64,000 nucleotides of DNA, from NCBI GenBank assembly GCA_965178125.1, contig OZ237753.1, positions 434,001-498,000 of the forward strand, written 5' to 3'. Shown here one piece after another: positions 1 through 64,000 of this stretch; position 1 is the first letter of the stretch, and each line of letters begins with the position of its first letter. Under the pieces are notes generated by a model. The model saw only the letters and a list, made by a program, of their open reading frames with translations, did not search any database and had not been told where the DNA came from. The position numbers and the translations under genes were made by a program. The stretch comes from Bilabrum cf. latius. Taxonomy: Eukaryota.

Positions 1-2781
1 AGACCCAAGAGCAGCGATGATGGCGGTACGAGCTACGACATTGATACCAGGCTACTCAAGCAACACACGCAGATGCCTCAATCCGACACCTAGCGAGTGC
101 ATGCATCCTTTGAGCAGTCGCCGACATGCTGCCGGATTTGCAATCATTTCAGCTTCAGACGAACCAACCTCACCTAGAGCAGCCTTGATCGTTTTCTCGC
201 CTACTAGCCTCACGCAATCGTACAGCTTCTCAATACAACGCCTGGCGCTCTCCCATTCTACATGGCGATCACGTCGTTGCTGCATGACAAGGTCAGGGCT
301 CAGGCCTGCCCACTCCGACCCTTCGAGCTTGCTGATGCATGCAGCTGCCTCTGGTGGTAGCAAACAAGTTAATGCTGAGTTCCCGCAGTAGTACCACTGG
401 GGACATGATACGATGGCCGATAGTCCGCGTGTACCATCGGCTTTCGTCCCAATTACAGCAACACAACCGCGGTTCGCGTATACACGCATCATCTTGACCT
501 GGAACGACAGCGGACAAGTGTGACAGAGGCGCGCCCAGTCCTCTAGTAATTTGCCCAACTTGCGCAAGTCGGGCTTTCCGTCTGCCTCATGTGCAAATTC
601 AGACAAGGTGATCTGATGGACAGACGAGGAGGCGCCTGTACCAGCGCCTTCATGCAACCAAAGACGCGGTCTAGCGCCATCGGAGCCCATCCACTCCATC
701 CAGACTACATCCGGGATCAGAAGTCGGTGTGTGTCTAGAACCACCCTCGAGCCGTTGGTCAGTTGGTGCACCTCCACGTCAAATGGCAGGCGTAGCAAGG
801 TCTTTTGTGTCCCAGCAGGGTGATCTATTCGGTGACGTACCGAAATTTGTGGCCTGCGGTAGTCCAAGTTTACTCCTGATGACTTGATGGCGGACAACAC
901 TGTCACGGCCAGCTCCACTTCTTCTTCGGGCAATCGTTCCTTCGCCAGTTCAGTCAGATTGATTGAATCTGGATCGCATACCCTTACAATCTTCTCAAGC
1001 TCATCTGCTGCCAAGCTCGTGCCTTTCAGAATCTCGAAGATGGTCTTGGGTCTGGAGGTGCTATCACTTTCAGGTTCATCATCAGCGACATACTAGTGCC
1101 TAATGACAGATCTAACGTGCCTTTCGTATGCATGCATGCCAAACCATCCAGCTATTGGATCCACAACATCATGAAGCTGCTCATCATCAACATGCATAGT
1201 CTTGCAGCCATCCGAAGACCCTACCCGAAGGGTTGCAGACTCCACGTCAACACAGGCGAATGCCTAGGCACGAATAAAGCAAATCCCACGGCTTTTTGTC
1301 TTCACTGGAATATCTACGCACTCCAATAGCGGGGTCGAGACGTGGACGCTGTCCATCGCGTGCACCCACCGACTCGCCGCTGCCTCCCGCTTGGCCGCTT
1401 TGGCCGCCATACGCGTACTTTTGTAATAGCCATTTTGATCGAATGCGAACTTTATGAAGAGTCCCACGCCTTCGTGCTTAAACTTGATACCACCTGCTCG
1501 GCCACCCACCGCAGCGGGCTGCAGTCCGGTACTGCGTTGGATGCCTGCAAGGTCCATGGAGGTGAACCCAACTGGATCGTCCCCTCTCCACACCATCTCT
1601 ACTACAGGGAAGTCATTGAAAACCTTGCTGACGTCAGCATGAAAGTGCTGCCCAACCTAGTCCAGCTTTGCACGACGCTCCATCTGCTCATGCGGGTTCA
1701 GCGCGACGGTGCGCTTGGCATCTTCAAACGCTGGCTAACGACCCTTCGGGGTTTGGGCTGCCTCGTCAGCCTCTTCTGTACCACTGCAGATACCACGTCG
1801 CTCCTATGAGCGGTGGTCGCTTATACTGCTGTCATCTACACCCACTGCAGTTGCCTAACTCATAGAAAGGTCCGCACCAGCACCTGAAGCGGCCGATGAC
1901 TACGGTACATCTGACCGTTCGTCAACCTGAACGGGCGAGTAATCGATGGCAGGGCAACCTGTGCTGCCAGCACCTAAATCTGCGCCTGTATTGATTAGAG
2001 ATGTGTAGGGAGAAGAGACCGTCGTGTCTTTTGCCTCCGAATCTGCGACGAGCTCGTCAGAGCACCCAACGGGCTGGGCTGCAGAACCTGTCCCGGTAGT
2101 TGTCACCGTTGCCGAATGATTTCCCACACAGCTATCAGAATTGCTGCTCGATGCGACAGATACGCTGGGATCAGCACCGGTTGAAAGGATCGGCCCTTGC
2201 GGCGTGCCGACATACGCGTGGGAGCCTGCGACCAGCTCTGCCTATGGCGAGCCAGAGGTCTCGGCTACCAAATCTGCTGGTTGTAGGCCTGGACGACCTA
2301 ATTTACTCAGTCCATCGATTTGCGTGTCTGGCCGCGCAGTGCAACAACCTGTCGAGCCAGTTCTAGACTCTGACTGCGCTTCACGGCTGCTAGTATCATG
2401 AAGTCTGCGATGATTACCAACATCCATGGCAGCAGATATTATCCCACTTGTCAGGGAAAGTTCTTCGACTAACCTGCGGGGACAATCAAAGGCGTTCAGC
2501 ATTGAGACAGCTCGATGTATACTGAATGGAACCGTGGACATCTTTCGTACGTATCGGTGATTTCTATCTCGCCGGGTTGATATCGTTGACGGGTTGATAT
2601 CGTTGACACGGATACCTACAATACCACCACTAAGTAAGACGTCTCTGCAGTCATTTTTACGCCGGAGTAGCAGTGCGTCGAACACCAAATGAGGTTGAAT
2701 GAAGTCAAACATCAACTTGCGCCTGCATTTAAATAGGGAACCAACGCGCAGCGACACTATCTAAAACGCAAGCTATGGCAT
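1..2781 (-). CDS. Clu-domain (clustered-mitochondria-like) protein, 3' end runs off the window
   Basis: ORFs 2242-2757, 1900-2127, 1264-1596 and 52-1014 share one frame and are separated only by TAG. Motifs GGRAGGIKF..IKFAFDQNGYY..AAKAAKRE, PFDVEVH..VVLDTHRLLIP and MHSLGVGLRHL resemble the Clu domain. The first ATG after an in-frame TGA is at 2781, but the true 5' end is uncertain. Confidence 0.65.
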
Positions 2782-3537
2782 ACTTACTCAAAAGCTTTGG
2801 ACCTAGATTCTCGCCAGAGCTGTGAATATGGCCTGAATACTACTACTACTACTTTGCAAGTCTGGCAAGATCGAGCAAATGCGATAAACGCACGTTATCA
2901 AATACACAATGTCGAAAGTTTTGTCTTGAGCAGAGGCAAGCACTGTTTCGCACATCAAGGAGCATTGACCAGGGCGGAGTAGTTTGGCCAGCTTGACTGG
3001 AGGCAATACGAATGGCGACGACACAGCAACCACCCTGAGCTTGCCAATACTAGTAGTAGTTGAAAAAACCTACAGGCAGGAGGCTCTTCAGACTGGCCGA
3101 ATAATCGTCACGCGCACAGACGACGCGATAACCAGCGAAGTGGCTCGCCAGATCCCGGCAGCCGCAGCAAGGGCCTCAAGCTGAGCTCGGGCCAGCTGCT
3201 GGCACCAGGGGACGGGGCCTACCTACGGGTCGCTGATGGGGCCAAGGGCGAGGATGCGAGTCTGGGATTCACCGCCGTGGGGGGCGCGACGGAGTTCCTG
3301 CTCTTTGACATGACCCAGTCGTGAGAGACGGAGTGGTACCTCTATCGCTACTGTGACCGCGACTGCAACTGCGACTGTTGGTGGGCGTAGGTGCCGTGGC
3401 CTGGAGGTGTATCGGCCAGCACGGTGCCAGTCAGCCATGGGTTGCCGCTGCTGGCCAGAAACGTTGCCATTGTGTGTTGATTTTAGTCTGATCTGAGATT
3501 CTGAATAGAACGTTGCTCAAACAACAGAATCAGATGA

Positions 3538-6500
3538 TCACGATTCAGCAGGTGCAATTCCTGAGGGTCCATCCGACGAAGCTGTGCCACGGCCTCTGCC
3601 GCTGCCAGGCTTTCGTAAGGCAGCGTCGCGCAAATACTGCGAAGAAGCTGCACCGGTGGCCTCCACGAGTCGTCCAAATGCACTGTCCTCGCAGGACAGC
3701 AGCTCCGATGGAGAGCCTTGCTCCAGCACTCTGCCGTCGCCCATCACAACCACCACATCATAGTCGATGATCGTTGCCAGTCTGTGCGCGATGGTGAGGA
3801 CAGTCCTGCCCTTGCAGTGCTCCCGCAGCGCTTTCTGCACGGCCTAATCTGCCTCCACTGACACCGAGGCCGTGGCTTCGTCCAGTGCCAGTATGGGCGA
3901 GTCCCGCAGGAGTGCTCTGGCCAGGCACAGCAGCTGCCTCTCGCCCTGGCTCAGCCCGCTGCCACCCTCCCCCACCCGGGCATCCAGTCCGCCGTCCATG
4001 GCACGGACGCGAGCAGCCATGCCTGCTCGCTCCAGAGCCGCCCATACCTGCTAGTCGCTGGGGCACTCGGCGCACGGCCTGCCAAGGTCAGGGTCCCAGT
4101 CGAGGCCCTGCTCCAGCCTCTTCGCACCTGGACCCGCCACAGCATCCATGATTCTCCCGCCGCTGTGGCCGGCTGCTGCAAGCCCGGTGCTGCGAGAGTG
4201 CGGGGACAGCACGCTCCGAGGACCCAGCAGTGGATCCGGACCCTGGGGCGATACCACCGATCGGATGGTGCCGGAGATGACAGCCCCGTCCTGCGGCACG
4301 ATGGCGAGGTTCTCCCGCAGGTCTCGGAGGCCCATGGTTGCTGTATCGATACCATCGATGGTAACGCTTCCCCTGGTGATGATTGCCGATCTGTACAGTG
4401 CTGCCAGAGTGCTGCTCTTGCCGCTCCCGGTGCGACCAACCAGCGCAACCTTGCAACCGGCGGGGACAGAAAACGACACTCCTTGCAGCACTTCGGGTAG
4501 TCCTTCCCTGTACCTGAGCCAGACGTCCTTGAACTCGATATGTCCGCAGGCAGGCTAAAGCGGAGGCGGAGGTCGTTGCTGTCTTGCCAGTGGCTTTCCC
4601 CCAGATGTGGGCACCATCATGGAGCCGCTTGTATCATAATCCGCAGCGGCTCGCAGCTAACCCTCAGGCTTGATTGCTGCGTAGTGCTTCAGTCTTTCCA
4701 CGCGTGACATATCAGCCTCCACCATGCAAATGCACTGCACCAGCCAAGCAACACCTTCTAGCAGGCTGGAAGCCTCTGACACGCTGAGCGCCAACATAGA
4801 GGCCTCGCCTGCCATGTACCGGTCGGGGCCCGGAGTGACGGCCAACGTGGCCAGTACGCATGCCACTGCCATGATCACGGCGCCAAGCAGGTCCACCCGA
4901 ATGGACATCCAGTCGTCTGCGAAACTCTTTGCGAACTCGACCGTGTTGGCTCTGTCGATGGCAAGCCACAGCTGGTCTCGCTCATGCTCCTGGAGGCCAA
5001 AGGCACGGATGCTGACCAGCCCCTCCGCTGTCTCTACCATGCGCTGGTGCACCGGACTTTCTGAGATGGCGCCTAACCTCTTGAGCTCTCGGGCAGATGC
5101 TCTGAAGAAAGACATCACCCAGTAATACAGGATGCCTACGATAGGAAAGACGCAGAGAAACCATGGCGACGCGACAGCCACGGCGATCAGGCTGAAGACA
5201 GTGCTGAGGATGATCAGCATGGCCTCATTCAGCTCGTCTGGTAATGCTTGGTCCACCTCCGTGACATCACCCGAGAACCGATTCAGGATGCGTCCCTGCG
5301 GCGTGGTCTAGAAGAAACTCAGTGGTGCCCGCAGCACTGAGCCGAGCAAACGGTCGTGCATCTGCCGGCCAGCCTCCACAGCTGCGGTAAACCAAGCAAA
5401 GTTGCGAGCAAGTGACAGGAAAGCCGTCATAATCCCAAGCGTCAAGTATACCAGCAGGCAGGTATCGGGCGACAGCCCTATCCTAAGGAGCGGAGAGCGG
5501 TCAGGCGATAGGTCGTCTTGGTGCCCGCTTCCCGTCCACAGCGCGATCCATACACTGCTGCTCTCTTGCACCCCTTGCAAGGCAACGGATAGCAGCCCGA
5601 AGGACACAAGGAAGCAGCAGCCTCCTAGGGAACTAAAATACTCCCAATACACCTCAGCACCCACAATGCCCTCGTATCTCTCCTCGTCATCGAAGAGCTT
5701 GCCAGAGCTGGGCGCTAGCTCTTGATGGTCTGCTTCGGCACCGGCCTCCCTTGCCGCTTGCGTGTCAGCAAGTGCACTGCCCTATTCTTGGTCTGTGCTG
5801 GCAGCGCCATGAGCGTATTTCTGGCCACAATGCTCTGGTCGAGTCGCATCTGAAGCGCCTACTTCTGCAGCATCTGACGCACCAGCTGCGCCAGTGCCGT
5901 TCGAGCTGGAAACAACGATGCCGAGGGCAGCTGAGGAGCGCGGGCATGTTGCGCAGCTATCAGTAGAATCAGACCTGCTTGAGATGCTGGCAGATGATGC
6001 AAGCGAAGCAAACGACACGCCTTGCGATTCCAAGTTGTCGTAGGTGTCGAAATGTCGGATCCTGCCACCGCGCATGACCAGCACCTTATCGCACCTCGGT
6101 AGGAACTGCACTTGATGAGTCACCAGCAGTACCGCACCTGGCTACGCTCCAGACCGGCTGTCGTCACCAGAGGCGAATGCATCGGTTCTGCGCAGCATGA
6201 ATCCGCTAATGGCCCTGGTGAATAGCCTTTCCGCCGTGTGCGCGTCCACGGCGCTCAGAGGGTCATCGAGAAGGTACACGTCTGGATCTGCGTACATGGC
6301 TCGTGCCAGGCAGATTCTGGCCTTCTGTCCGCCCGACACGGTCACACCGCGCTCGCCAAGCTCAGCCATATCGCCGCCATCCAGCTGCTGCAGATCAGTA
6401 GCAAGGCAGGCAGAATCGACAACTTCGTTGTAGAGCGGCTAGTTGCATTTCATGTCAGTGGTGGCCCGGTCAGGTTGCCTTCCTCGACTGTGGCCACGAG

Positions 6501-8676
6501 CACCGCATGCGCCAACTAGGATGTTGTCTCGCAGAGGTCCGGATTGGATCCAAGCGGTCTGTGGAACGTATGCTACCCGAGTACCCTACTGTACCCGGGC
6601 GCCTCGATGGTCAGCCGATGCGACGGGGGAGGACGAACGCTCGTTCCCTGCCGCGCCTTCCTCGCGTGGTTCTGCAGCCTCTAGTTCCCCCAATAGCCCG
6701 AGCAGTAGTGACGATTTCCCGCTGCCAACGGGACCTACCACGGCAATGAGTTCTCCTGCCTGGATGGAAAGGGTGAGATCGCGAAGCACCGGTCGAGCCG
6801 ATTGGGCAGTGGCACTGCTTGCTGTTGCTGCATTGCTGGCACTTTTGTCCCCAGAGCAAGCATCCCCACGGTTTTCTTCATCGCTGCATAAAGACGCAGG
6901 GTCCTAAGTTGATCGGTCATCGGACAGGAGTGGCTTACTCAGGTCATGCATGCTGTCGTACTACCGTCCTGGCACAGACTTCTAAGTGGGTTGCTGCGCC
7001 TGATCGCTATCTCCGTCAGCCGACTCGCACGCGTACATGCACCCGCAGAATAGCTCGAGAAACATGTCTCTTTCTTCCTTCTCCTCTCCCCTTAGATCAT
7101 GCCTGGTCAAATGAGAGCTTCCGCATGCACGATTTTCACTATCCTCATCGTCACTATCGCCCTCATCGCTGTCCTCATCTGCTATCCAGTCCGGAACACG
7201 GTGATACCTCCGGGTCATTGCGCCAGCAGTTTCCAGCACGGGCACCTGGGCCACACTGACCTACTTGTTATCGCACTCAGAAATAGTGTGAAATTCCCCG
7301 GCCTGATTATCTGCATCGGTGCTAGACTGCCCATGCGTGTCTCTGGTGGGGTACAAGCCGGCCACTTCGGGCAACACTAGGAATCGAGAAATCCTGCGCA
7401 CCGACTCCAACCCCGAAATCACATTGGCGATGCTCTCTGGGATACTAAGCAGCTCCCAAACTGTCATTTCAAAGCAGAACAGACTGGGAAACACGATCTC
7501 TGGCGTCAGCACGCCCCCCATAAAATGGAAGGTCGCGAACGCAGCGCATGCCTGCAGAGTACCGGAGCACCACACGAGACTCATCAAAGTTGCCATGGTG
7601 AAGTTGTAGGCCTTCACCGCATTCAGCTCGGAGGCTCTATGCCGCTATATTCGGCGGCCGATGATGCCCTCTATGGAGAAATACTTGATGTACTGGATGC
7701 TCTGCAGTGCCTCGCCCAGCACCTTCATCCTAGACTGCTCTGATGCCATCAGCTTCTCCTGCGTCGCTTCAAAGCCCCTAGCGATGCAAATGTTCACGGG
7801 AAGCATGATAAGTGCCATGGCAACCGCCCCGAGGACGGCAAGTCCCAGCAATCTGCCTGCAATCACGAACGATGCCACCAGCACGAAGGGACCACCAAGC
7901 CCGGCAGGTGCCCAAAGCAGCACCGATTCCACCTTTTCCGTGTCAGAGCCCGTCAGCGTACTAAGCACGCCTTTGCTCACGGATGATGCGGGTAGCTTGA
8001 GCAGTTTGGCGTGCAGCATTGCCATGAGGCCCGTCCTGCAGTCCATTCCGATGATCGTGCTCCAAGCGGACCTGTGGTGCTCGGTGACTATTACTGCTGC
8101 GGATGCACCAGCGAGCACGGCAGACCACATGCCTGCCCAGCGGTAGTTTTTTGCAGACAGGGCGGAAATCAGCTCTTTCAGGATGAGGGCGATGCCGACC
8201 TGCATGCCCCTCGCCAGGAACATCATTGCCATCGAGGCGTAAACTCGGCCGTACTCTACGCTCACCAGCGCGGACCAGACAGTCGGAGACGGTGATGGCT
8301 GCGGCCGACATATACACGGGCAGAATGATGATATGACGCAGCAAGGTGTTGGTTCCCGATGTGAAGGCTCTGTTGCCGCACACGCGTGCTCCGGCGACTG
8401 CGGAATCGGCTGTTCCTGCATGCCGCGAAAACGAGCAGGAGCATCTGGTGAGTACACCGACTCCCAAGCAGCCAAGTATCTCGGTGCAACTTGTGAGCAC
8501 GACTGATTTGCTTGCAGTGGAGGGATGTCCTTGGGCTGGATCGGCTTTGATGCACCCGTTCGGAGCATCTAGTCGAGAAAGCTGAATGTTAGGTAGCCAA
8601 GCCACGTCCTAGCATCTTCACGCGGTGCAGGCAAGCTAGTAAAGCTAACCGTACTAGGTCCCTTGGAAGGTGTCAT
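3538..8676 (-). CDS. ABCC/MRP-type ABC transporter (TMD-NBD-TMD-NBD), intronless, ~1712 aa with UAG read as sense
   Basis: Ten track ORFs lie in one frame, joined only by TAG. It has N-terminal [13 protein letters not shown]1 GPVGSGKSS / VSGGQKAR / [15 protein letters not shown]2 [13 protein letters not shown], and NBD2 GRTGSGKSS / LSQGERQ / LDEATA / IAHRL. ATG at 8676 is directly preceded by TGA; the gene ends in TGA at 3538. Confidence 0.92.
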
Positions 8677-9651
8677 TCAAAGCTTTACTTTGTTCTCAGA
8701 AGGCTTGTGAGCATCTGCGTAGACCAAGATCAAGTGTTTGCGACTGAACCAGCTCTAAGCAGATAACGATGATTGCTTCGAGTGAACCATTCCCATTATA
8801 GACTTTTAAAATGCTACAATACGCATCACTATTGTCTATCGCGCTAGTACATGAGGAAGACAAAGCGTTTCGACGAACGACACAAACTAACATACAGGCA
8901 TGACTGTCGACCTGTACTCACCATCGGACTTAAGTGAGCTCTTCTTACGTCGAATTCAGTTGTAATGAATAGAGATAGTCACTTGCGTCTTCAACTATAG
9001 CTGATTTCTGTGAAGTAAGGAATTCAAGAAACGGAGCACGGCTCCGAGTTGCTGTTTCCGGATTGCTGATGAGCGGCAGCAATGGAGCGCGAAATTGGTC
9101 GACATGCTATTGTAATTGTCTGCCGCATCACTGCTGTGATGGCACTTCTCTAAAGTCTGCATCCACCACGCGCTCAGCATCCACACCCGCAGACCCCGTG
9201 GCCTGATGCGATGCACCCCCCGCGCACCAACACCGCGCCCAGCCCCCCGCCACGAATGCCACGAATAGATTGAATCGGGTGCGTCAGATCCTCTGTATTG
9301 ACGCATACGGGAAGCACCCTCAGCGCACTAACTCCGTGCATGCTACCACGACGGACCTCGGCCGGACCAGGGGAAGCTAGCTGTACGGCACCCCCCGGGC
9401 CGCAGTTGTGGGTCATGCCTGGTGCGCTCGAGAATGCATGCAATGACGCTCGCGGGCTTGCCTGAGGCAGCCTGTGTGCACTCGTGAAGTTGGTTTGGGA
9501 GTACCCAGAGGCCTGATGTCTACGTTACGCTCGAGGTGGCTTGGTGCGATCGCGGCCGCGTTCGGCTGCCGCTGCTGGGATGGTCGCAACTTGAAGCCCC
9601 AGAATCCGTTCGCCCCGATTCGAGCCGCGCTCAAGATCCCCTCTAGCTATC

Positions 9652-12600
9652 ATGTCGTACTACCAGCAGGCATTCGACAAGATTTTGCAAGAATGCTGTA
9701 TACGTCCCAGGCCAACGCCTCCGTCTGAGGCTTTTCCTGGACAGTGGTAGCTCATTCCGACTGGCCTTGTTGAGCAGCTCGCAGCCTTGAAATCAAGCAC
9801 GAGGGAGAGATCAGTATCAATAGGGAGGTTGTCGTCTGCTGAAATACGAGAGTTCATGTCTGTAGAAAAGCAGCTCAGCAAACAATCTTCGTATCGCTCT
9901 AGCCCACGCCGAAGGAGGATGCACGGCCCAGCGGCGGGATCGGCAGCCTCTAGCGCTGGCACGCCCCGCCCCCCAAGACAGCAATCTAGCAATCGTGGTA
10001 TATCATTCTTGGAAACGGCGTCGGACGACGTTGCCACTTCAGACTTGGTAGACGTGGACTTGGCCGAAATAGTCGCTGCGCTGCGGGTGCACCTGCGAGA
10101 GCTGAGCTTCCAGGAACGCATGCGCCTAGTTGTCACTGATCGGGTCCTGGAAGACCCGTCGTCGTTTTCAGTTGTCATTCGTGGGCGGCTTGGTCCTGTC
10201 GAAATCGGCGGAAAAGTCTCCAGCCTCGGCGGGCAGACAGGGCGCTCATTCGGTCGCGGCACGACGATGCAGCTACCAGATGCGCCGCGGTACGCATCTA
10301 TGGCCGCGACAAAAAGCCTATTGATTGGATCGGCCAGCATTGAGGGCCTGTCTGCCCTGCAGTGGAGCATATAGCGCGCACAGAACAGCACGAAAGACAC
10401 GTTCCGCTCCATCGACGGCGGCTCGTATCCACGTACTGCAGAGGCGCTGCGTCGAAAGAGGGAGCAAAGACTGCACGGGATTCAAGGATCAACCGCTTCA
10501 GCGGGCGGTCTGGCGTCTCTTGGAGACAGCAATGGGTCTCAAGGCGTTTTGAGCGAGCAGAAGCAGCTGCCCGGAAACGAAGCCCTGCTCCGGTTCGCAT
10601 TCAAGGACAAGCTGGTCGCAAGATCCGGCCCCGGTGGGGCAACCGTGTCGTCGGCTCAGGAGGTGCGCGATGCGCTCGTCACACGGGGAGCAGAGGCGCT
10701 TCAGCGGCTAAACACTGACGTGTTCGGTCGACTCGCGGCGGCGCTCGGCGACGACGTTGGTTCCGCAGCTGGCGGCGCCGCATCGGCTCTGGCCGTTTCG
10801 CAGGGCTTGTCGGCTGCCGAGATTCGCAAGCGACTGAGAGAGGGAAACACCGCCGCCGCCGTGCGCAGGAGCAGGCTCATGGGCAGGACCACTACATCGT
10901 CGGCGCGAGGCAGCCTGCCAGGAGGCAGCCTGCTAGGGGGAAGTGCGCCGGGTACCAGGCTGATGGGGAGGCCAGATCGTGGAAGGATGGTGCCGGGGGC
11001 GGTGGCGGGGGTGGCCGAGCTCCGAGGCATGGCGTTTCAGGACGTGATGGGGGGACCCGAGGACGACTTGGCCTTGCGCGCGGCCGAGCAGCATGCCATC
11101 GACGGTGCCATCGAGAGCATGCAGGAATTGGACACCGAGATCATAGCACGGCTGGTGCCGCCCGACGAAGACTCGGATCTTGCGCGATTTGCGGCGGGTA
11201 CTGCGCAAGGAGTGGCAGGATTGGTGAGTGCCGGGTTCACTATGGGCAGCCTCCACGGCGATGGCAGGATGAGCCGTGACCGTGCCGCTGACGGTGGGAG
11301 GGGGAGCGGGGCCAGCGATGGCGCTGCTCACGGTCTGCACCTTCTTTCACCTGCTTCCGGTAGGAAGCGGAGGAGGTCAAGCCTGAGCAAAGAACGGATT
11401 GCCATGAACGCCGATTCGCTGGCCGATGCGGACCACGTGCGTGGCTCGGGCGCGATGACCGCTGGCAGCAGCAGCAGCGGCAACAGCAGCAGTATCAGCA
11501 ATGCGGGTCTGGCCATGCCAGTGGCATAGAGGGCGCGGGCACACAGGGCTTCCTGGTCCAAGATCCGGCAGATCGTGGGGCGTGTGGCCGTCGGTGTCCG
11601 GGAGGCAATGGCTTTTCGCGAGGAGGCGCAGCAACGCAGCTACCACATCCGGGCAGAGTACCTCAGGTATGAGTATGCAAGGGACCTCAGATCTCTGAGG
11701 CAGAGATTGCAAGCGGCGGTGGATGACCTCAGGTTAAAGCTGGAGCGCGCGAGGCGTAGGGAGGCGGAGATGCAGAGGATTCACGAGGGCATGTACGACG
11801 AGCTGGCCAGGGCGAGGCGAGCGAGGCAGGCCATCCGTGATTTGCTCAGGGCGAGGGACCCATCGACGTACAAGCTGAACGCAAAGCTGCCTGAGAGCAA
11901 AGGGGAGGAAAGTCAGGAGGACGTGTCTGCCCATCGTTGGATCTGGGACAGCGACTCTGACGACGAGGGGGATGAAGGCGACCCCAGCAAGGGATTCTGG
12001 TCCGTGCGTGACGTGGTGGGTCCCGATGGCGACATCACAAAGGTGCGAAAATGGGTCGGGTTCTCCAAGATCTTGGGCGAGGACAAGAAGAGCAAAGGGG
12101 TTGGTGCCGAGCAAGGTGAGGGTGGGGAGGAGCAGGGCATCGCGAGCCGCAGGAACAACGTGCAGGTCGCGCACAAAGGCACGCAAACGAACTCTTTGCG
12201 CGTTGAAGACCTCAAAGACGGTGAGGTGCTCCGGTACATCGCTCAGAAAGTACAGAGCGGCGAAGGATCGATCGCAGGTTACGTCAGGATGATTGCTCGC
12301 AGGTGGGCCGACCAGGGCATTGAGGCTCAAAAGTACCAGGACTCGGCCGACCTGATCGATGCCCTGATCGACGACCCGGACGGCACGGTCAAGAACATGC
12401 TCAAAACAGTAAAGCGCAAGCTTGTGGGCAGCCGCTGGCGCACCGTAGTCACATTTGCGGAGCAGACGGCCAAGCGCTACAAATCCGGGGACGCCCTCCG
12501 TGACGTGGCATAGAAAGCCTACAACAAGACCATCTCGGAGCTCGCAGCCGAGCTCAAGCAGGCCAAGACCGTCATTCGCACAAAAGAGAGGGAGCAGCAG

Positions 12601-15600
12601 AGGGAGCGGTCCGCCCGTTTGGCCACCGGCACCAGGTCCTCCTTCTACAAGGCTAATGCCGACATCACCAAGCTGGCCCGTGCGGCCTCCAAGCACGTGT
12701 CCTCCAAGCCGACCAGAGCATCAGCAGCTCGAGCGGCGGCGTTGATGCGTGAGAAGCAGCAGCAAACTGGGGCTCGGGACGAGTCCAAAGCCGCGGCTAT
12801 CATGGCAGCTGCAGCAGCATCAGCAGCCGGCGGATTCTCTGATGCTGAGGTTGACAAACCGAGGCCGCCACCGCCATCGAGAGAGGGCCAGCTGCCAGCC
12901 GGGACACAGCACCAAGGCAGAGGTGGCACTCCGGGCAGGTCACAACCCAGGGCGCCGCCTAGCAGGGAGGCTGGGTCAGGTGGACGAGACGGCTCATGGG
13001 ATGAGGCTAGCCCGGCAAGGGGTCGCAAGCGCGGTGGGGAGCAGCACGCGAGCCATCCGTCTGCGGTTGGTGGAAGCAGCCGCTCTTTCCGACGCATTGC
13101 ATCTGGTGTGAGCGTTGGATACCTGGGTAATCTGATCGACGAGCAAGTTGCGGATGAGGCTGACCTGGACGGGGAATGGGAAGGGGGGCGAAGCGGACAT
13201 GACGAGACGGGCAGGAGTGCAACAGGGCTCACCCAGGGTGCGGCCGGATCCAGGGAGCACGAGATGCCCGGCGGAGGTCCCAGGGAGCAAATGTTTACAG
13301 GAAACGGCACAGGGGGCCGGAACAGGGGCGGGCCCAACCGGGTATCGTCCTTTGGTGCGGTGAGCCTGGGTTCAAGCCACAGCGAGAGCTCTTAGCAACT
13401 CGTGGAGGGCCAGTCAGGGTCGGGGCACGACCTCAGGAGAGAGTTGCTCGACTCGTAGAGCGCACGTCGTCACCAACACGACGAATAGATGCACGTGACG
13501 AGTGCGACTGGCACCAGCCCTTAGCAGCGGAGGCTGTCGCGAAAGCACCCGCACAGTCAGACAATGGCGGGAGGTGCCATGCAGGGTGCGTCTGGGGGCG
13601 CTAAGGGCACGCACGCCGGGCAAAGGCCAATGCGCGCCGCCAGCTCCGCTGCAGATCTCCACAACGTTGCAAATGCTCACACCGTTGCTCGCCGGGCGGC
13701 GAGGGATTTCCGGCAGAAAAAAGAGCAGCTGCGCATGAGTCGCACGGACTTGACCGCTGGGACTGAGTATCAGGACGCAGTGGGCCTCGGTAGCGGGGAG
13801 GGTGGCGATGGTGACCCGTCGGACGGTCATGACAGCAGCGGCCATCCCCAGCAGGCTCACCTGGATGAGGACGAGCGAAGCGTTGTGCTAGCCAGGGTTG
13901 CCTCCCGGGCGCGAGTTGTGCCCATCAAACAGAGGGTACGAACCGACGCGGCAGCGGCGGCAGAGGCCCGAAACTTGCTGGCAGAGGCAAAGGCAGCGGG
14001 GGCCAAGGTTGGTCGGGTTCGGCCGTGGATGTCGGGAGCTCATGCTGGTGGCGCTGCTCGCAGCGTAGACTAGGAACAGCACAGGCCACGACATGGTTCC
14101 GATCATGTGGATGGGCACAGTCAGGCGTCAGTAGGCGGAATGCGCGGGCTTGGGGCCCTGTCATCTTCAGCAAGCCGGAGGCATGAATCCAGCCGGCGCC
14201 TCAGGCTAGCAATGCAGGCTGCATCCACTGGTAGTGGTGCTAGAAGTCGTGTGATGAGTGAAGACGAGGAGCAAGCGGCGGCCCTCCGTGATCGGGGAAT
14301 TGTATTGCTTGCCAAACCCAAGGTATACAGCCCGATCGCCGCGGGATTAGATTCAGCTGGGGCTGGGTTTGGGAGGCCAGTCGAACCGGCAACCACGTCT
14401 GGACAAGGCATGCACCGGGCAGGCACGATGGGACCGGGGACCCAGGGAACACGAGGGCATGTGCCGTCTCGAATGATTAGTCGCCGCCACAGCATGGAGG
14501 ACATCATGCACGGGTCGAGCCTAGCGGTTGGCCAAGCCATGGCGCGCAGGCAGCACGACAGCGATGCTCGCTTCTTGACGGATAGCGTGAGCGGTGGACT
14601 GTTTCACCTTGATGCCAGCATGGCTTCTTCGCCTTCGAGCAGCAAAACGGGCGCTGGTACTGGTGGGCGACCAAGGAAGGTTGGACCAGGACCAGGAGCG
14701 GGAGCGGGAGCGGGAGGTGTAGGCGGAGAAAGGGGCAGTGGATCGATTCGGGCACCGCGCGCACAGCGACGTTCTGGGGGTGCTGGCGATGCACGATATG
14801 GGCGGCGCTCTTCGTTGCCTGACCGTTTGAGCGAGCAAAGTGGTCAAGCAAGTGCTCGTGCTGCTCTGCCGCGCGGATCTCCTAGGAACAGCGACCCACG
14901 GCGGGTGCGGGCTGAGTCCAATTCGTCGTCGCAAGGCGTGAGCTGGGATCCTGAATCACTTTCTGATGCCACTGGAGAGGGCAGGGCGGTCCAATTTGAG
15001 GGTAGAGCGGCGAGCAGGGGAAGAGGCGTGGCTGTCCCCTCGTCTGGCCTGTTGCTGCATCCGCACTCGGGCCGATCGGTTCCGTCCCTAGATTTGCGCG
15101 GCGCCCGTCCCAGCGCGACCGACCTGCAAGGCGACACCTCTGGTATGATTCTATCGGCTCGAACGTTCGCCGATGCCGGTCGTGCGCGCGACCATGCGGT
15201 GCACCCGCGGCGAGGACGAGGCGGCGGCGGCTCACTCAGGGGACCGGGTTCGTCTCATGTTTCCGTTCAGCTGCCGCTGTCCATTCAGTCTGCGCGACTG
15301 GGTGCATCGCATGGCAGTGCATCAAGGCACGGCTACTACCGCGATCACCGGGCAGCCAGGGGAGTACTTTCGGGTAGCCGCGGCACTGCTGGCAGGACCG
15401 TGCCGATGCCGATGGGTGCTTCTGGGCAGGATGGGCACGGGCAGGCGCTGGGCCTTGATCACCTACTGGTGGCGTCTGGCTCGATCGGTGGCCGGAGTGA
15501 TGGTGCATCGGGGGTGCGTGCCTAGTATGCATTGCACGGTGGTGTGCGCAGGACTCGAGCAAGGTCCCACTCTCCAAATTCGATGCGGGTGGGGGCGGGC

Positions 15601-15798
15601 GGGGCAGCGGTTGGCGGTGGCAGACCTGGACCTGGACTCGATCGAGATTCCACCTGGGGTAGTGCAGGCGCAGATAACAGCAGGAACCCTTCGGCATCCA
15701 TGCACAACAGTTCAAGAGGCCAGCTGCCGTCCGGAACCGTTGCAATGCCGATGGATGGCCTGGCCTTGGCGGGCCAGTCGGCGATTGTCCGGCGATAA
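9652..15798 (+). CDS. Hypothetical ~2048-aa protein with a central coiled-coil and Gly/Ser/Ala-rich low-complexity regions
   Basis: Seven track ORFs (9787 to 15798) are in the same frame, joined by about 10 TAGs with no TAA/TGA. ATG 9652 follows an upstream TGA and the gene ends in TAA. No family recognised. Confidence 0.7.
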
Positions 15799-16319
15799 TG
15801 TTGAGCAAAGAGATTTGGTTAATCGTTGTTATATTAACTTGTCACTGCAACGGTCATTCGTGCGACTTGTCCCCATGAAGTTGAAATGCTAGTGCACCAA
15901 TTTAGAGCTGTGTCTACGTCCGTTTTGCTCCTGCCTCCTCCAATGCGCTTCCATTGGCATTGCACGCCCCCTCTTACCGGCAGCATACATTCATCGTTGT
16001 CTCCCGATCGGTAGTACCTTTCGCGATGCCGGTGATTTTTCGGCACCTGTGGGACATCCATCATGCTTCGGTCTCATCGTACTCAAGCCTATACTTGCGA
16101 GCACCCAGCGGCCCTACGACTCCAAATTGGTTTCAAGAAATATTACAACCGCCATTGCTGCTACCTTGAGCACTGCTCTTTTCCTGCATTATTGCGAAGG
16201 TGACAAAGGGCTGACAGACAGTTGACTTTGCTAGCAGCAGCAGTCAATGCACATCGACTGACGAATGAACAACTCCTTCGAGCTTGAACACGGTAGTAAC
16301 ACGACAGTCTCTCGAAGTC

Positions 16320-45262: not shown

Positions 45263-45459
45263 GCTGGCTCTTGCGTCCTGTGTTTGCATGTTTTGCGTTT
45301 AACTATGGGAGTTGGTCGGCAACAGGGAGCCCCGCAGCACGTTGCACCTGGAGCTATTCTGGACGGCTTCATCCTATTCGGAGCCACAACCAAAATGACG
45401 GTTGAACAAGCATTTCGAGCGAAAGCTCGGCTTTCCCTTCAGGTTTGTGACACACCAGC

Positions 45460-51400: not shown

Positions 51401-52704
51401 ACGTGATGGGGGACGAGTTCAGGCAAGAAGACAAGCTAGAGTTGCTTGTGGGAACCCTGGTGTCGAGGAAACAGGGCGGTCTGGTCGGAGACCAGGCCGT
51501 GGATGCAGCAGTGCTACAAAGGCAGCAGGAGGACAGGATCGAGGAGGAGGAGAAAAAGGCCGAGCAGGAGCGCGAGAAGCTCCGGCTTGCAAAGAGCATC
51601 GGAGACAGCGAGGTACACGGCGATCCTAGTAGCAGTAGCGATCAAGGAGGCACTGCTCAAGGAAAGAAAGGCGCTTCACGCCTTGGCGCACTGCTGAGAA
51701 GTAGTGCACGAGGCAGCACCACGCCGCAATCCAAACCTGCAAAGATTGACCGCTTGCACATTGTGGCACCCATTGGCCCAGGCAAGGGCGGCAGGCTGGC
51801 AGCCTAGGTGCTCGGCGAGTTCTCGCCCGAGAGGGTTCGTTCTCGCAGCCAGTCTGCCACACCGAACCGCTCGCCCAGTGGGCCGGGGTCTGTAGATGCG
51901 GCTGGTGGGATTCCCGTTCTTGGACGGCTCGAGGACGAGGGCAAAGAGACTGAAAGAGCTGCTTAGCTGGCGGGGTAGTTTGAAAGTAAAGCAAATGAAG
52001 CAGATGGGGCTGGCTCTGGGCAGCACGTCACTTTCTTGACTGCAGGTATGGAGCTGCAAGGACGGGAAACCCAACTCGAAGGCGCTGGGCCAGGCGGTAG
52101 CCCCGGTCTAGAGCCAGCCAGTGTAGTGGCACCGCATGCAGCCGACAAGCCTGAGGCCAAGGCAGGATCGAGCTTGAAAACAAGCAAGCCAACACGGAAG
52201 AAGATGTTCCGTTCTGAAGAGAACAGACTGGCGCACGCCGGCACGGCCGAGCTGAAGCGCCTGCTGGGGCAGGTCAACGCCAAGATGAAAGCAGCTGCCT
52301 CCAAGGTGAAGGACCTCGACGAGGCCGCCTCAAAGAGAATCGAGAGCATTCTGGAGACGGCTGGGGGCCTCGGAAACCAGCCCAGGCTGGGGCAGGCCAC
52401 GCGCGGGAGGGAATACATCAAGATGCACAAGAACCTGGGCCAGTGCCGCTCGTCCATGGGCCTCAGCGCACTCCCTGTCTCCAAGCTCAGCACGGTGGAG
52501 CAGAACATGCTGGAGACGTCCAAGCCGGGGACTGTGTGCGCCGCAGTGCGGCACATTCGCAAGGCGAGGGAGAGGGCGGGCAGCATCGGTGGCACGATGA
52601 TCAGTCCCTTGCGGCAGGCTGCCAAAGAGGCCCTCAGTGCCGGACGTGGTGCAGCCAGGGGATCGTTGGATCCATCCGCGGCACTGGAGGGTGGGGCGCT
52701 TTGA
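45460..52704 (+). CDS. ~2414-aa EF-hand + WD40 repeat protein (EFCAB8/WDR49-like architecture) with long low-complexity insertions
   Basis: Eight track ORFs are in one frame, joined only by TAG. It has an N-terminal FREIDANDDLTLEWNEL EF-hand and WD motifs (LLTGGTDGCIHVYD, GHEYG..VRVW, GHTASIRDM..ASLDGLTRIWD). Ends in TGA. Confidence 0.8.
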
Positions 52705-55302: not shown

Positions 55303-55650
55303 TCACGTACCAGCGCCACCTCCGGCAGCCTCTGCAACGACCACACTGCCCTCTTTCTTATCCAGCGCCCCAACCTCACCTTCCTCTGGCACAGACCTTG
55401 CATACAGCTTGATCTCAACGCTGTCATGCGCTCCCTTCAGCAGCATTTTTCCCTTGAAGAAAACGATCTTGCGCTTCTTGGCTGCTAGCAGCGTGCCCAC
55501 AAGTGCCTCAAACACCTGCTAACACCTATCATCGTCGAACAAATCACCAAAGGTAACGATGTACTTCCCGTCATCCTGCTTCTTCCCCAATCGAACTATC
55601 TCGAATCTCAGCTGGTCAACCTCCTCCTCAATCTGGGAAGCATCAGCCAT
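55303..55650 (-). CDS. Costars-family protein (ABRACL-like)
   Basis: Translates as IEEEVDQLRFEIVRLG..VTFGDLFDDDRC*QVFEALVGTLLAAKKRKIV..MLLKGAHDSV, with one in-frame TAG (55519-21). Ends in TGA. Confidence 0.9.
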
Positions 55651-55847
55651 TATCCACTCAGATTAAACGCAGAAACGCCGTGTGTAATCCTTGCCAACCA
55701 ATAGAAGGTGTTGGTAATGCTGCCAAGCCGGTTCCAGCTCTGCCTTTACTAAACACACTGTGGCACAGCAAAGTTTCTGTTCCGTTCAGCTCAACTCGGA
55801 GCGGATCTTCGAGTTGCGATTGACAAGCTAGACCTACAAGAGGACCC

Positions 55848-57122
55848 ATGTTGCTCCGTATTACAGCCTTGATACCATTTTTACTCGCTTGTGACGGAAT
55901 TCTTGTCTTAGAAGCAGATGGGAACTTTGTGATAAGCCAAATTACTGACTTGCACTACGGCGAGGCCGAGAGCCTAGACTGGGGCCCAGCTTAGGACCAT
56001 AATTCGACCAGAGTCATGAGGCTAGTCCTTCCGAGAGTTAAACCAGGTCTGGCTATGTTTACTGGAGATGCGATCACCGGAAATAACGTTCATGCAAACG
56101 CCACGTCGTACCTATTTGAGCTGACCGAGGTCGCCAGGCAGATTGGCATTCCTCATGCGTACTTGCTTGGGAATCACGATTGCATGCCGTTTCAGTCGAT
56201 TGCGTATCACTCTCACACAAAGGAAACGGGGCATCGCTCGACGGCAAGCGAACATGACAGCATTCCCGTCTCGATGGATGGGAAACGACAGCACCTGGCC
56301 GCCAGCATGCCCACTGGGTCAGTAGGTGGCTCATCTCACCAACAATCATTACAATTGGCTGCCCCGGCGACCAAAATAGGTCGCCGCGAGCTTCTCTAGT
56401 ACGACACCACGCTCCCTGGCAGCCAGTCCAAGATGGGCCCAGCGAACGTCACGGGGGCTTCCAACTACGTGATCGAGGTGCAGTTCGACGATTCGCGGTC
56501 GGTGTGGGCAGGCAGCACAGGCAGGCCCGCCCTGCTCATCGCGGTGCTTGACACGGGCGGCGGGGACGCGCCCGAGACGATCACGCAGTCGCAGGTGGAC
56601 TGGATGGAGCAAGAGCTCAGCCGGATCGGGAGGGTGCACCGCACTGATGTAAACGGCCCCATACCGATGCTGGTGTACTTCCATATCCCGACGTAGGAGT
56701 TTCAGCGCAGCCGCAATGCGAGCAGCAGAGAGGGTGCTCCGAGCAAGTGCTTCGGGTTCGTCGATGACGGCATTTCGCCCGTTGAGCCAGGCTCTGCCGA
56801 CCTTGTTGGGCTGCTCGCGCAGAGCAAGGTCCGATTTGGCATCGTGCCAGTGGCTGCGTCTGTGGGTCACGATCACGGGAGAGACGATTGCTGCCGGTGG
56901 GAGGGGGTCTGGCTATGTTTTGGGCGACACTCAGGCTACGGGGGATACGGGAGCTGGGCGCGGGGGCTGCGGAACATCCGGGTGCGGTATCCGAGCGTTG
57001 GTGCTGGTGTTAGGCAGGGTGGTAGTATGGTGCCGTTTCCTCGCGTGGATACTTGGGTGAGTATGGAGGACGGGACGGATCGAGACGATGGTTTGCTGGC
57101 GGCTGGTTCCTCCTCCAACTGA
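55848..57122 (+). CDS. Calcineurin-like metallophosphoesterase (PAP16/DCR2-like) with a signal peptide
   Basis: Motifs TDLHYGE..DWGPA*D, FTGDAI, GNHD, FHIPT*EF, GHDH and GRHSGYGGYGSWARG are present, with three in-frame TAGs. Ends in TGA. Confidence 0.9.
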
Positions 57123-57383
57123 AGTCAGGGGAAGTGCCACTGGCAGTGCTGATTTATCCTTCGTCATCGCACAGACTCTTCTCATCTCATTCGACGCCAA
57201 CAACGAATAAGGCTCTGGCTCCTTACCATCGGCACACCGCGCAACAGAATGTTGCCCACTGTGCTCGGCCAATGCAATCTAACTCGTCACCTCCAGCAAG
57301 CGCGGCGGCAGACCCGACTGTGAGGCATCTATAAATTCGAACGGAGCAGAGCCGAACCAGCAGATCGCAGAAAAAGTGCAGCC

Positions 57384-58841
57384 ATGGCAGGTAACGAGTC
57401 TGCGATCGACTCACCATTGCTTGCAGATGGACTTGATGGTGTATCATTAGAGGCTCACACTCCATCTCCTCGGACTGGTAGTTTCCAGGTTCGTAGGCGA
57501 CCGCCGTCGGGAGCAGGGTCGAGTATCATGCCGCAAGGAACCATCAATTCCGGCGATATTGAAAATTAGAGTCTCATGGGATCGCTTGAAAAGCCTAATG
57601 GCGGCAGTGATGACGCAAAAGATGGCGTGACAATGGTAGCGTTCGCTGGAGCCGTGTCCAACCTTGCCAATGCGGCGGTTGGTGCAGGAGTGCTCGCGTT
57701 TCCCGTCGCATTCATGTACTGCGGCTTGGTTCTAGGGATCATAGTCAGCCTCTTCTTTGCACTTTTGATGGGGTTTACCCTGCACATTCTCGCGGTTGCT
57801 GCGGATGCATCAAAAGCCGATTCCTACTAGGGTGTAATCGAGCACGCGCTGGGACCCCTTGCCGGCCTTGTGGTCAAGTGCTCCATGACGCTGTACCTGT
57901 TTGGCGCGTTGGTGGCCTACCTGAACCTGATCAAGGACCAGGTGCAGAGCATCGCCGGTCACGACCCGTCGCTGCGCCACACGGCGCTCAACAACCCATG
58001 GCTCATCGTGCCGGTCGTGGCGGTTGGAATCGTGGGCCCCCTGTGCCTCCTGAAGAACCTCGATTCGCTGCAATTCACGTCGTTCCTGGCCGTCCTCTCC
58101 GTCGTGTTCCTCGAAGGCGACGTGCTGTACCGGTCGGCGGAATTCCTGCACTCCAACGGGGGGGCTGCCGACGGGGTGGTGAACTTCCGGTGGAGCATGA
58201 AGCTGTTCGCCTCCGTGCCTCTCATCGCCTTCGCGCTGCAGTGCCATCTGGTCTTTGTTCCGGTTTACCACTCCCTCGCCAAGCACGGGGGCACGCCCGG
58301 CCTGATGGACTGGGTCTCTGCGGCCACATTCCTCGTGTGCCTCGGGCTGTACCTCCCGACGGGGGCGCTGGGATACATGCGCTTTGGGAACGCGACGAAC
58401 GGTGACGTCCTCACCAACATGGGCTTTGCCATCGACACCAATATCGCCAGGGTGTGCATCGCACTGACGGGGCTCTTCTCCTACCCCCTGCTCATGTACG
58501 TCGCGAGGACCTCCTTATCCGACCTGATCAATGTGCTCGTCACACCGGACAACAAAACCAAGCTGGTGGACGACAACTGGCGGTTCTACGGGCTGACTGC
58601 GGGCTTCCTTCTGACTTCTGCCGTGGTGAGTTCTGCGGTGGACGATCTCTCCACCGTGCTGGGGGTGACGGGCAGCACGGCCGCGGTGGTGCAGGTGTTC
58701 ATCATGCCAGGGCTGGCTTGGAATCAGATCCACAAGGAAAGCAAGAACTGGGTGTGGCACTATGTCGTCGGGTGGGGGCTCGTTGTGTTTGGGGTAGTGA
58801 TCGGAGCGGTGGCGCTGTGGCAGACGCTCGAGCCTGCGTGA
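57384..58841 (+). CDS. Amino acid/auxin permease (AAAP, SLC38-like) transporter
   Basis: Motifs NLANAAVGAGVLAFPVAF, SY*GVI, FALQCH, GYMRFG and SYPL are present, with many hydrophobic segments and two in-frame TAGs. Ends in TGA. Confidence 0.9.
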
Positions 58842-58963
58842 AAACAATAAAATGCTATCATGATTGCCTGAAAGATGATATTGTTCGGAGATCGGATTCG
58901 GTGCGCCCTGCCTCGTTCACTTAATCAACTTGAACCACTGCCAGAAGTAATGTCCATGCTCGC

Positions 58964-62811: not shown

Positions 62812-63125
62812 TATCGGTTCGAAAATGAGATGTGACGTGGCAGTTGCACATGCAAGCTGTGAGGCATTGGATGCCGATCGGAGCGAATACTTCCGGAAAG
62901 TCGGCGTGCGTGGTGAGAGAGCATGATCAATGAATGTTGCTTGGCTCATACATGATCGTAGTGCGTCACCATGGCGACTATGGCAGGCGCAATCCAAGCT
63001 GACGGCACCACCAACCCTCGCAGGCAACCACTTGGTGGCCTAGAGAGCTGGGAATTGCAAGCGTTGTTAGTCTACCCCATCTTAGTTCGTTCAGCCGCAG
63101 TGATTTCAGCCCGAGCCAATGCTGC

Positions 63126-64000
63126 TCAGAAATCCAGGCAGTTACCCAGGCTCCTGCCCTGCTTCTCGAGCGTCAGGCAGTACCACCCCAGTGCCCCCTT
63201 GGAGAAATTGTTCGGGGGCCGACCGCACTCGACCGTGTCTCTGGCGAACGCCCCAGACACGTTGTATCCATGGTACTGCATGTAGTAGCTCCCAGAGAAC
63301 TCCCCCGTCCGGTCGCAACCAGCCTCACAGTGCATGTCCATGACAAGGGGCAGTCCGGACGGGTGCGGCGTGGTCAGCATGCGACGCACGTTGCTCAGGC
63401 GCTCCGGGAGCTGGTCAATGGCCCACAGCACGTCCGTGTTGTTGACGAGATAGTCCCGGATGTCGGCTGGGGTGTCCTGCGAGCAAGAATCCGAGCATGT
63501 GCGGCTGAAGATGCACGGCGCTGTGAAGGGAGAACTGGTGATTCGCAACCCAGAACAACGCCAAAACGTCAGTGATATCACAATACATCGGTAGAGGGAG
63601 GCCGTGTTAACTCCTAAAACTCACTTCAGGTGGCAGCAGGGCTCCGACAAGGAGGTACTCCGTGAGGTTAGCGTTCGGGGGGTTCTTCGCAAAGTAGTCG
63701 AGCTCAAGGTAGTAGTCAGCCTCAAACGGATTGTCGAAAGAGATATCTAGGAAGAAAAATTCTGATGGCAGCGAAAGTCCAGCTTCTTGGGCCCTTTTCG
63801 CCATGAACTAGTCCAGCTCCTGTCGTGCAAACGTGTCATTCACCCTCGGGAAGTTGCTCCTGAACAGAAAATTGGTAATGCCAGCGCTAACGTTGTAGTG
63901 ATCAACTAGGTGCGTCCGGCTGTACTCTAGATTCTCGGCCGATGCCTACTTTGTTGCGGTAGCAAGCACCAAACCTGCTGCAACTATTCCTGGCAAATTT
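63126..64000 (-). CDS. PTP/dual-specificity phosphatase-like protein, probably secreted; 5' end outside the window; intron ~63624-63477
   Basis: It has the catalytic loop HCEAGCDRTG, an upstream exon HLVDHY..NFLFRSNFP and a hydrophobic N-terminal stretch. Contains in-frame TAGs and ends in TGA. Confidence 0.75.

Follow-up and report, generated by a model that had tools for sequence, protein, structure and literature searches.

When TAG triplets interrupt nearly every gene of a eukaryotic DNA segment, are those triplets lesions, stops, or codons, and if they are codons, for which amino acid? The question is raised by a 64,000-nucleotide stretch of contig OZ237753.1 (assembly GCA_965178125.1, deposited as Bilabrum cf. 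latius; positions 434,001 to 498,000), hereafter the window, in which positions are counted from the first letter. A first-pass annotation made from the sequence letters had proposed that UAG is a sense codon in these nuclear genes, most likely for glutamine (Gln), and that it is uncoupled from UAA. We found that UAG is a sense codon, that UAA is not, and that Gln is the most likely meaning of UAG. The genome within the window is GC-rich and intron-poor, with a GC content of 0.54–0.63 per 4 kb, short GT-AG introns, and genes on both strands. Pfam matches were obtained for an ABCC transporter, a CLU-domain protein, malic enzyme, a tubulin-tyrosine-ligase-like (TTL) protein, and an mRNA capping enzyme, and also for a PAP16-like metallophosphoesterase, an Aa_trans transporter, Costars, EF-hand, small Tim, a glutathione peroxidase (GSHPx) exon, and an eRF1-like protein. 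The remainder comprises large low-complexity open reading frames (ORFs) and four tandem paralogues that belong to no family.

With the standard stop codons, ORFs of at least 300 amino acids summed to 9,118 amino acids, the longest having 758. When TAG was opened, the sum rose to 21,420 amino acids and the longest frames reached 2417, 2067, 1712, and 1153 amino acids, the first three of which appear solely when TAG is read through. Opening TAA instead brought almost no gain (10,624 amino acids, longest 758), and opening TGA merely gave a large number of frames of intermediate size, which is what the most abundant stop triplet of GC-rich DNA would be expected to do. Across 17 gene frames with 15,003 codons, 98 in-frame TAGs were counted together with 0 TAA and 0 TGA, whereas the two off-frames combined contained 233 TAG, 94 TAA, and 561 TGA. 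TAG is therefore about equally common in and out of frame (6.5 vs 7.8 per 1000), and TAA and TGA are excluded from the coding frames. At least one TAG was present in all 17 frames, at densities of 1.1 to 19.7 per 1000 codons, in agreement with the earlier observation of in-frame TAGs in nearly every gene. The lack of internal TAA, also noted then, holds even where the frames are bounded by TGA alone. Of the two counts given at that time, the 10 TAGs in 9652–15798 were recovered exactly, and the figure of about 16 for the ABCC gene is corrected to 15.

The TAGs are also crossed by homology without any change of frame, as seen in comparisons of the ABCC, PAP16-like phosphoesterase, CLU-like, malic enzyme, and TTL genes with solved structures and database homologues. 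The base 3' of TAG was G in 30 cases, C in 36, A in 20, and T in 12; because this base is variable, there is no single readthrough context. The first-pass annotation had likewise taken varied contexts as speaking against programmed readthrough.

The stretch 22001–32000 also occurs in sequencing runs from other studies, under four other organism labels, and no RNA run is listed among the runs that contain it. Contigs of the runs X1, X5, X6, and X7 were compared with window positions 1–20000. Pieces from X6 span 3038–8980 with 0 differences, including all 15 ABCC TAGs, and of the 34 gene TAGs of 1–20000, 26 lie within the X5 pieces listed, likewise with 0 differences; the TAGs are identical across the contigs of X5, X6, and X7, which come from three other studies. 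The contigs of X5 and X7, unlike those of X1 and X6, skip segments of 145, 105, and 99 nt, which on the minus strand have the ends GTAAGT..CAG, GTGAGT..CAG, and GTGAGC..CAG, respectively. The CLU-like gene contains an in-frame 99-nt intron at about 2473–2571 (minus strand) with a GC donor (GCGAGA..CAG, i.e., GC..AG with the cut moved by 1), and an X5 contig lacks it. The records do not state what kind of run each of these is; from the joints, we read the skipping contigs as spliced cDNA. Seven TAGs were unchanged, with 0 differences, on spliced X5 contigs: six of the CLU-like gene and the TAG at 17214–17216 in a small Cys-rich gene, which lies on a spliced contig of depth 247 and at whose position the paralogue has Arg. 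As the TAGs are unchanged across studies and on spliced contigs, it is very unlikely that they result from errors, pseudogene lesions, retained introns, or editing. The first-pass annotation had called for a comparison of DNA with transcripts, naming CAG or TGG at these sites, or TAGs arising as sequencing artefacts, as what would speak against its reading. On the intron-skipping X5 contigs, TAG was kept and no CAG or TGG replaced it, and the identical TAGs in runs of other studies speak against artefacts.

The same comparison yielded a second contig version in X1 over 3157–4396 and 19405–19923, with 12 substitutions and 14 gap letters in 3157–4291, which has the appearance of another haplotype or strain; no TAG codon is touched by the X1 differences listed. 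The CAG-rich low-complexity stretches at 11340–12006 and 12800–12830 draw deep unrelated contigs from X5 and X7 (depths 1619 and 2916), and the apparent joints from 11485–11493 to 12803–12806 were rejected as splicing and attributed to a repeat artefact of these stretches.

Because single alignment columns can mislead, the amino acid assigned to UAG was examined with query-anchored profiles built from three homologue sets, those of the ABCC, phosphoesterase, and CLU-like genes, the last of them after removal of the window's own fragments. The log ratio of emission to background was scored at each TAG column with at least five homologues, which gave 19 usable columns. The summed log-odds were 9.06 for Q, 4.25 for K, 2.01 for N, and 1.24 for E, and at the low end −1.9 for D, −3.0 for A, −8.0 for Y, −13.0 for W, and −14.3 for L. 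Under a flat prior, the posterior for Q was 0.990. When only the strong CLU matches were used, Q scored 9.14 against 4.72 for K (posterior 0.986), and Q ranked first with any single family omitted. In a calibration with 19-column samples at the query's real codons, the true residue was recovered in 97–100% of 500 draws, a somewhat optimistic figure because the homologues had been found via the query's real residues. The mean self log-odds of the TAG columns fits that of true Gln codons (z = −1.3), whereas the other residues tested gave z of at most −3.2. Gln-dominated columns accounted for 3 of 19 columns at TAG, 6 of 78 at CAA/CAG, and 0 of 2307 at all other codons, so that all 6 found among the 2385 non-TAG columns lie at the query's own CAA/CAG. 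The three decisive columns are residue 57 of the phosphoesterase (Q in 101 of 120 homologues), residue 403 of the CLU-like protein (TAG 1264–1266; Q in 24 of 32 strong relatives), and residue 246 of the same protein (TAG 1735–1737; Q in 6 of 10). On this alignment evidence, TAG behaves as a Gln codon, and Gln is its most likely meaning. The proposed assignment is thus supported by the column log-odds, by the Gln-dominated columns, and by the ORF ends of relatives described below, and TAG does not align mainly with another residue in these columns; such an alignment would, according to the first-pass annotation, have told against Gln.

That annotation had pointed to five Gln-like positions on the basis of family consensus, and all five (55992, 55519, 56694, 57828, and 24450) are TAG codons in the contexts given for them when translated (DWGPA-TAG-D, DDRC-TAG-Q, HIPT-TAG-EF, SY-TAG-GV, and FAEI-TAG-Q, respectively). 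As evidence for Gln they are unequal. The TAG at 55992 is that of phosphoesterase residue 57 and is the sole strongly conserved Gln among the five. At 55519, Q does score best, by a margin of merely 0.1 bit. The column at 56694 proved variable (P 15, Q 15, N 13, and R 12 of 120), and 57828 is uninformative, with Q, E, and K within 0.2 bit. The caution that Glu could not be fully excluded by eye applied to inspection; Glu is now disfavoured by 7.8 nats relative to Gln.

Several other approaches to the amino acid were tried and set aside. Pfam bit scores with TAG translated as different residues were too weak to be used: TTL and Aa_trans differed by at most 0.5 bit, Metallophos was better with Q by about 2 bits, and Costars was best with Q by 0.1 bit. 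A naive Bayes classifier of neighbour context was rejected after naming the right residue for 16 of 55 real codons, and pairwise context versions, which gave weak hints against Ser, Asp, and Ala and mildly favoured Gln over Glu, were not used either. A first ABCC profile without background correction ranked the residues E = A > K > S > D > T > Q, an order that reflects residue frequency, and was replaced by the log-odds. The tandem paralogues are too diverged for their alignment to be informative, TAG facing Q once and elsewhere C/S or H/K.

The CLU-like gene provides a different type of evidence. Its family is small, with 116 matches in the protein library, and many of these relatives are short ORFs of 54–444 amino acids; ten that were looked up lie on contigs of 3–19 kb. 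Among 19 fragmentary relatives whose ORF end maps inside the query (the window's own fragments excluded), the end fell on a query Gln in 6 and on a query TAG in 3, against a background of 3.6% (P = 7e-9); when unique sites were counted, 6 of 16 were on Gln or TAG (P = 1e-5). Thus, these relatives or paralogues have in-frame stops where the query has Gln. Drawn from the ends of predicted frames, this pattern supports the equation of the stop codon with Gln as a second, independent line of evidence and suggests that the code is common to more than the single CLU-like gene. A search with the single CLU protein also returned eight metagenome loci with a GC content of 0.66–0.74; their long ORFs (up to 2524 amino acids) stay uninterrupted when the standard code is applied, so that the code change does not extend to these more distant relatives. 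Six diverged CLU-like copies were seen in one metagenome sample, on contigs with a GC content of 0.66–0.73. The named relatives of the window genes conflict taxonomically: for the CLU-like gene, Cafeteria alone (of 20 clusters looked up, 2 are named); for the phosphoesterase, Capsaspora, choanoflagellates, amoebozoans, Plasmodiophora, and diatoms; and for ABCC, an amoebozoan transcriptome and metagenome proteins.

In contrast to TAG, TAA is not a sense codon. Codons ending in A are not rare in these genes (CAA/CAG 183/400, GAA/GAG 243/559, and AAA/AAG 139/344), and if TAA were coupled to TAG, about 45 TAA would be expected among the 98 TAR codons, whereas none was seen (P = 9e-17). The proposed uncoupling of UAG from UAA is therefore supported. 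TAA was seen solely upstream of starts and at two gene ends. The 20 gene ends comprise 18 TGA and 2 TAA, and this TAA share agrees with the off-frame share of TAA among TAA and TGA (14%, 2.9 expected). UGA acts as a terminator and never occurs in frame; for Aa_trans, Costars, GSHPx, and ABCC, the position of the C-terminus is fixed by profiles or by a solved homologue. With 0 TGA and 0 TAA in frame, the window differs from codes of the Condylostoma or Blastocrithidia type, in which all three stops are reassigned or ambiguous. Both TAA ends have the form TAA-NNN-TGA (15796–15804 on the plus strand and 24788–24796 on the minus strand), and a second stop within two codons was found at 2 of 2 TAA ends vs 0 of 18 TGA ends (Fisher P = 0.005). 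UAA termination may therefore be weak, a hint drawn from two cases.

The window also encodes a very divergent homologue of the release factor eRF1, which carries an in-frame TAG of its own. The GGQ motif is retained. In the human numbering of the N domain, GTS is changed to DES, with E at the T32 position, E55 to Q, NIKS to KIRS, and L69 to S; the GTS, E55, NIKS, and L69 positions are listed among the stop-codon-reading elements in PMC5304391. For all three domains, the best solved matches are eRF1 chains, and among the matches listed from two structure searches, 43 of 44 belong to eRF1 or aRF1, the other being Dom34. The protein is far more diverged than ordinary eRF1 (N domain E = 1.7e-5). 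Its C-terminal half is long, acidic, and of low complexity. The reading frame is broken in 29996–30108, beside a CCCCC run, and this break is probably a 1-base shift at that run; an intron joining the two frames was considered and rejected, as no candidate has the CAG-type acceptor of the four confirmed introns and a 1-base shift fits better. Given the extreme divergence and the frame break, the homologue may therefore be a paralogue or hold an assembly error. Judged from its residues, the protein with altered stop-recognition positions may be the release factor or its paralogue. In human eRF1, the E55Q substitution leaves 75% of the activity at UAA, 35% at UAG, and 80% at UGA (PMC4698671, Table 1).

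Neither a tRNA gene nor an Rfam match was found in the 64-kb window. A decoding tRNA should have the anticodon CUA because UAA is not read as sense, an argument made for earlier cases in PMC5304391. In the mechanism that we propose, a tRNA-Gln with this anticodon would read UAG and could not pair with UAA, and eRF1 would have lost or weakened its recognition of UAG. UGA would be the working terminator, and UAA would be shut out of coding sequence and serve as a rare terminator. In all, it is very probable that UAG specifies Gln throughout the nuclear genes, with UGA as the working terminator and UAA as a rare terminator outside coding sequence, a pattern corresponding in outline to NCBI table 15.

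Several observations weigh against parts of this reading. The Gln signal comes mainly from the three decisive columns; without them, K (4.5) and Q (3.4) are indistinguishable. The ABCC TAG at 4555–4557 stands at a Trp column that is invariant in all 92 aligned homologues, the malic-enzyme TAG falls where the five solved malic enzymes aligned have F or V, and neither of the two closest ABCC relatives shows Q in the 8 TAG columns that they cover. The CLU relatives had been recruited with a translation in which TAG was Q, the local alignments using X at TAG. The run classifier guessed the type of X5 as 'RNA? (probably DNA)'. Finally, TAA as a stop is not firmly shown, since there are two TAA ends only and both have a TGA two codons on.

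These observations bear on a series of rival explanations. That the TAGs are untranslated, being sequencing errors, pseudogene lesions, unrecognised introns, or RNA editing sites, could draw on the homopolymer-associated frame break in the eRF1 homologue and on the in-frame introns present in some frames; lesions would, however, have to be of one type alone (98 TAG with 0 TAA and 0 TGA), to sit within conserved blocks, and to recur in the runs of other studies and on contigs from which introns have been removed, and we regard this explanation as having a negligible chance. A different amino acid, namely Lys, Asn, Glu, or, as in the rhizarian exLh, Leu, is improbable. Lys ranked next after Gln in the column test and takes the lead when the three Gln-dominated columns are left out, several other ABCC TAG columns are rich in D/E, and two TAG columns are hydrophobic. 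Against this, not one TAG column of the 19 has K, E, N, or L as its dominant residue, whereas 25%, 15%, 19%, and 41% of the query's own codons for these residues, respectively, stand in such columns; the self log-odds z values are −4.0, −4.0, −4.2, and −9.5 in the same order; and the 19 ORF ends of relatives fall on K once, E twice, N once, and L twice, compared with nine on Q or TAG. A code in which both UAA and UAG specify Gln (table 6) would be the commonest variant nuclear code, according to PMC5304391, and the third-position GC content of 0.53–0.81 in the long ORFs might make UAA rare. The abundance of A-ending partner codons makes the observed count of 0 TAA, against about 45 expected, a matter of P about 1e-16, and the two in-frame TAAs both lie within three codons of TGA at gene ends; this code is very improbable here.

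The remaining alternatives concern termination. UAG might be ambiguous in the manner of context-dependent codes, being sense within genes and ending translation close to some 3' ends, given that the sample of 20 gene ends is small and that TAG occurs 33–66 codons before TGA in some genes, such as the capping-enzyme gene. In ABCC, Aa_trans, Costars, and GSHPx, however, whose C-termini can be located from a profile or a solved homologue, the frame passes every TAG and continues to TGA, and we consider such ambiguity highly improbable. It is also conceivable, if rather unlikely, that UAA is neither sense nor an efficient stop, the release factor being biased toward UGA and old UAA ends surviving through an immediate UGA, with UAG still read as Gln. 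The TGA at the second codon downstream of both TAA ends, to which none of the 18 TGA ends offers a parallel, the predominance of TGA among the ends, and the altered GTS loop, E55, and NIKS of the eRF1 homologue would fit such a factor; on the other side, the TAA cases number two and their share matches the off-frame expectation, the homologue may be a paralogue, and E55Q in human eRF1 cuts the response to UAG far more than that to UAA (PMC4698671). A more far-reaching version, which we judge to have only a slim chance, is that the lineage is moving to a one-stop code: UAG would have been taken by Gln, UAA would be unassigned and kept only before an immediate UGA, the diverged eRF1 of the window (DES, Q55, and KIRS) would be the working, UGA-leaning factor, and the change would be shared by an uncultured clade with CLU-like genes cut at Gln.

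The features of the window are listed in Table 1.

Table 1. Positions and characteristics of the annotated features of the window
Feature	Positions	Strand	Characteristics
Whole window	1–64000		Eukaryotic nuclear DNA, TAG = sense codon
CLU-domain gene	1–2787	−	3' end beyond the window; 9 TAG downstream of the intron
ABCC-type ABC transporter	3541–8676	−	1712 codons; 15 in-frame TAG; ends TGA
Low-complexity ORF	9595–15804	+	2067 codons; 10 TAG; ends TAA (15796–15798), TGT, TGA (15802–15804)
Two small Cys-rich paralogous genes	16100–17273	−	One GT-AG intron each: 16183–16327 and 17019–17123, ±1
EF-hand protein gene	24788–25870	−	3 TAG; ends TAA (24794–24796), TTA, TGA (24788–24790)
Malic enzyme	26270–28315	+	1 TAG (26774–26776); ends TGA
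eRF1 homologue, very divergent	28654–30604	−	Own in-frame TAG; two overlapping frames (29996–30108)
Four tandem paralogues	31278–43536	+	896, 927, 1153, and 609 codons; 6, 5, 10, and 12 TAG; all end TGA
Tubulin-tyrosine-ligase-like gene	44132–45262	+	1 TAG; ends TGA
WD40 protein ORF	45451–52704	+	2417 codons; 14 TAG; TGA on both sides
Costars-family gene	55306–55662	−	1 TAG (55519–55521); ends TGA
PAP16-like metallophosphoesterase	55824–57122	+	3 TAG; 55992–55994 aligns with Q in 101/120 homologues
Amino-acid transporter (Aa_trans)	57324–58841	+	2 TAG; Pfam profile reaches position 409/410, three residues before TGA

The two Cys-rich genes are adjacent and encode proteins of 80 and 65 amino acids without a Pfam family match, each with its intron near the 3' end, and they are represented by the deepest X5 contigs by far (about 250). 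The four tandem paralogues, which likewise had no Pfam family match, are arranged head to tail and share a conserved N-terminal block and a near-identical C-terminal block of ~40 residues, separated by long disordered middles; the fourth has the highest TAG density of all (19.7 per 1000 codons). The 2417-residue WD40 protein had no relative of comparable length in a library of 5.8 billion proteins, where one spurious WD40-repeat match covered 2% of the query. A 310-bp tandem repeat at 18031–19179 comprises 3.7 copies that are 99% alike, and its minus strand repeats an identical Gly/Ala-rich ORF.

A code with UAG as Gln and with UAA and UGA as stops is listed as NCBI table 15. The closest parallel is that of the fornicate Iotanema spirale, for which PMC5304391 gives 204 in-frame UAGs in 126 genes, UAG specifying Gln, and stops consisting of 104 UAA and 15 UGA. 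As in the window, UAG alone is reassigned, and to Gln, with no in-frame UAA or UGA. The GTS loop of eRF1 is altered there (T32G); the window homologue, which may be a paralogue, has E at T32. The two differ in that the genes of Iotanema spirale end mostly in UAA and those of the window in TGA (18 vs 2 TAA), and in that the present data are genomic DNA with a GC content of 0.54–0.63 and include small-Tim and malic enzyme genes. Among the phyllopharyngean ciliates, Hartmannula sinica and Trochilia petrani share with the window the reassignment of UAG alone to Gln, UAA not being sense, but prefer UAA as the stop according to PMC11687900, whereas the window prefers UGA and is GC-rich. UAG is read as Leu in the rhizarian exLh and in an uncultivated phyllopharyngean lineage (PMC5304391 and PMC11687900). 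Codes of this kind resemble that of the window in uncoupling UAG from UAA; Leu is rejected here (−14.3 vs +9.1 for Gln), and none of the 19 TAG columns is Leu-dominated, compared with 41% of the query's Leu codons. Table 6 codes, such as that of the hexamitin diplomonads (PMC5304391), share UAG as Gln, but the window has no in-frame TAA. In an oligohymenophorean ciliate, UAA and UAG are reported to code for different amino acids (PMC10553269); the two codons are uncoupled as in the window, but both are sense there, and UAA is not sense here. The statement of the first-pass annotation that UAG-only reassignment is known from very few lineages, exemplified by Iotanema and a rhizarian, is accurate as to rarity; its examples need to be extended by the phyllopharyngean ciliates (PMC11687900).

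In the literature searched, supplements and most subscription journals aside, there was no account of a GC-rich non-ciliate with UAG as Gln and UGA as the main stop. Ciliate genomes are generally AT-rich. An apparently undescribed lineage joins the few known in which UAG alone has changed, the code pattern itself being already known. An annotation under the standard code would chop nearly every gene of this organism, and the protein library already holds the CLU-like gene as fragments of 110, 156, and 320 residues. Changes of UAG alone are rare and provide a natural test of whether UAA and UAG are separable mechanistically. The published cases come mostly from transcriptomes or fragmentary assemblies, and all of them rely mainly on UAA as the stop. 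Here, the genome is GC-rich, the contigs are long, UGA is the main stop, and transcript data are public; the genome could therefore reveal directly which tRNA suppresses UAG, which release factor is at work, and what has become of UAA.

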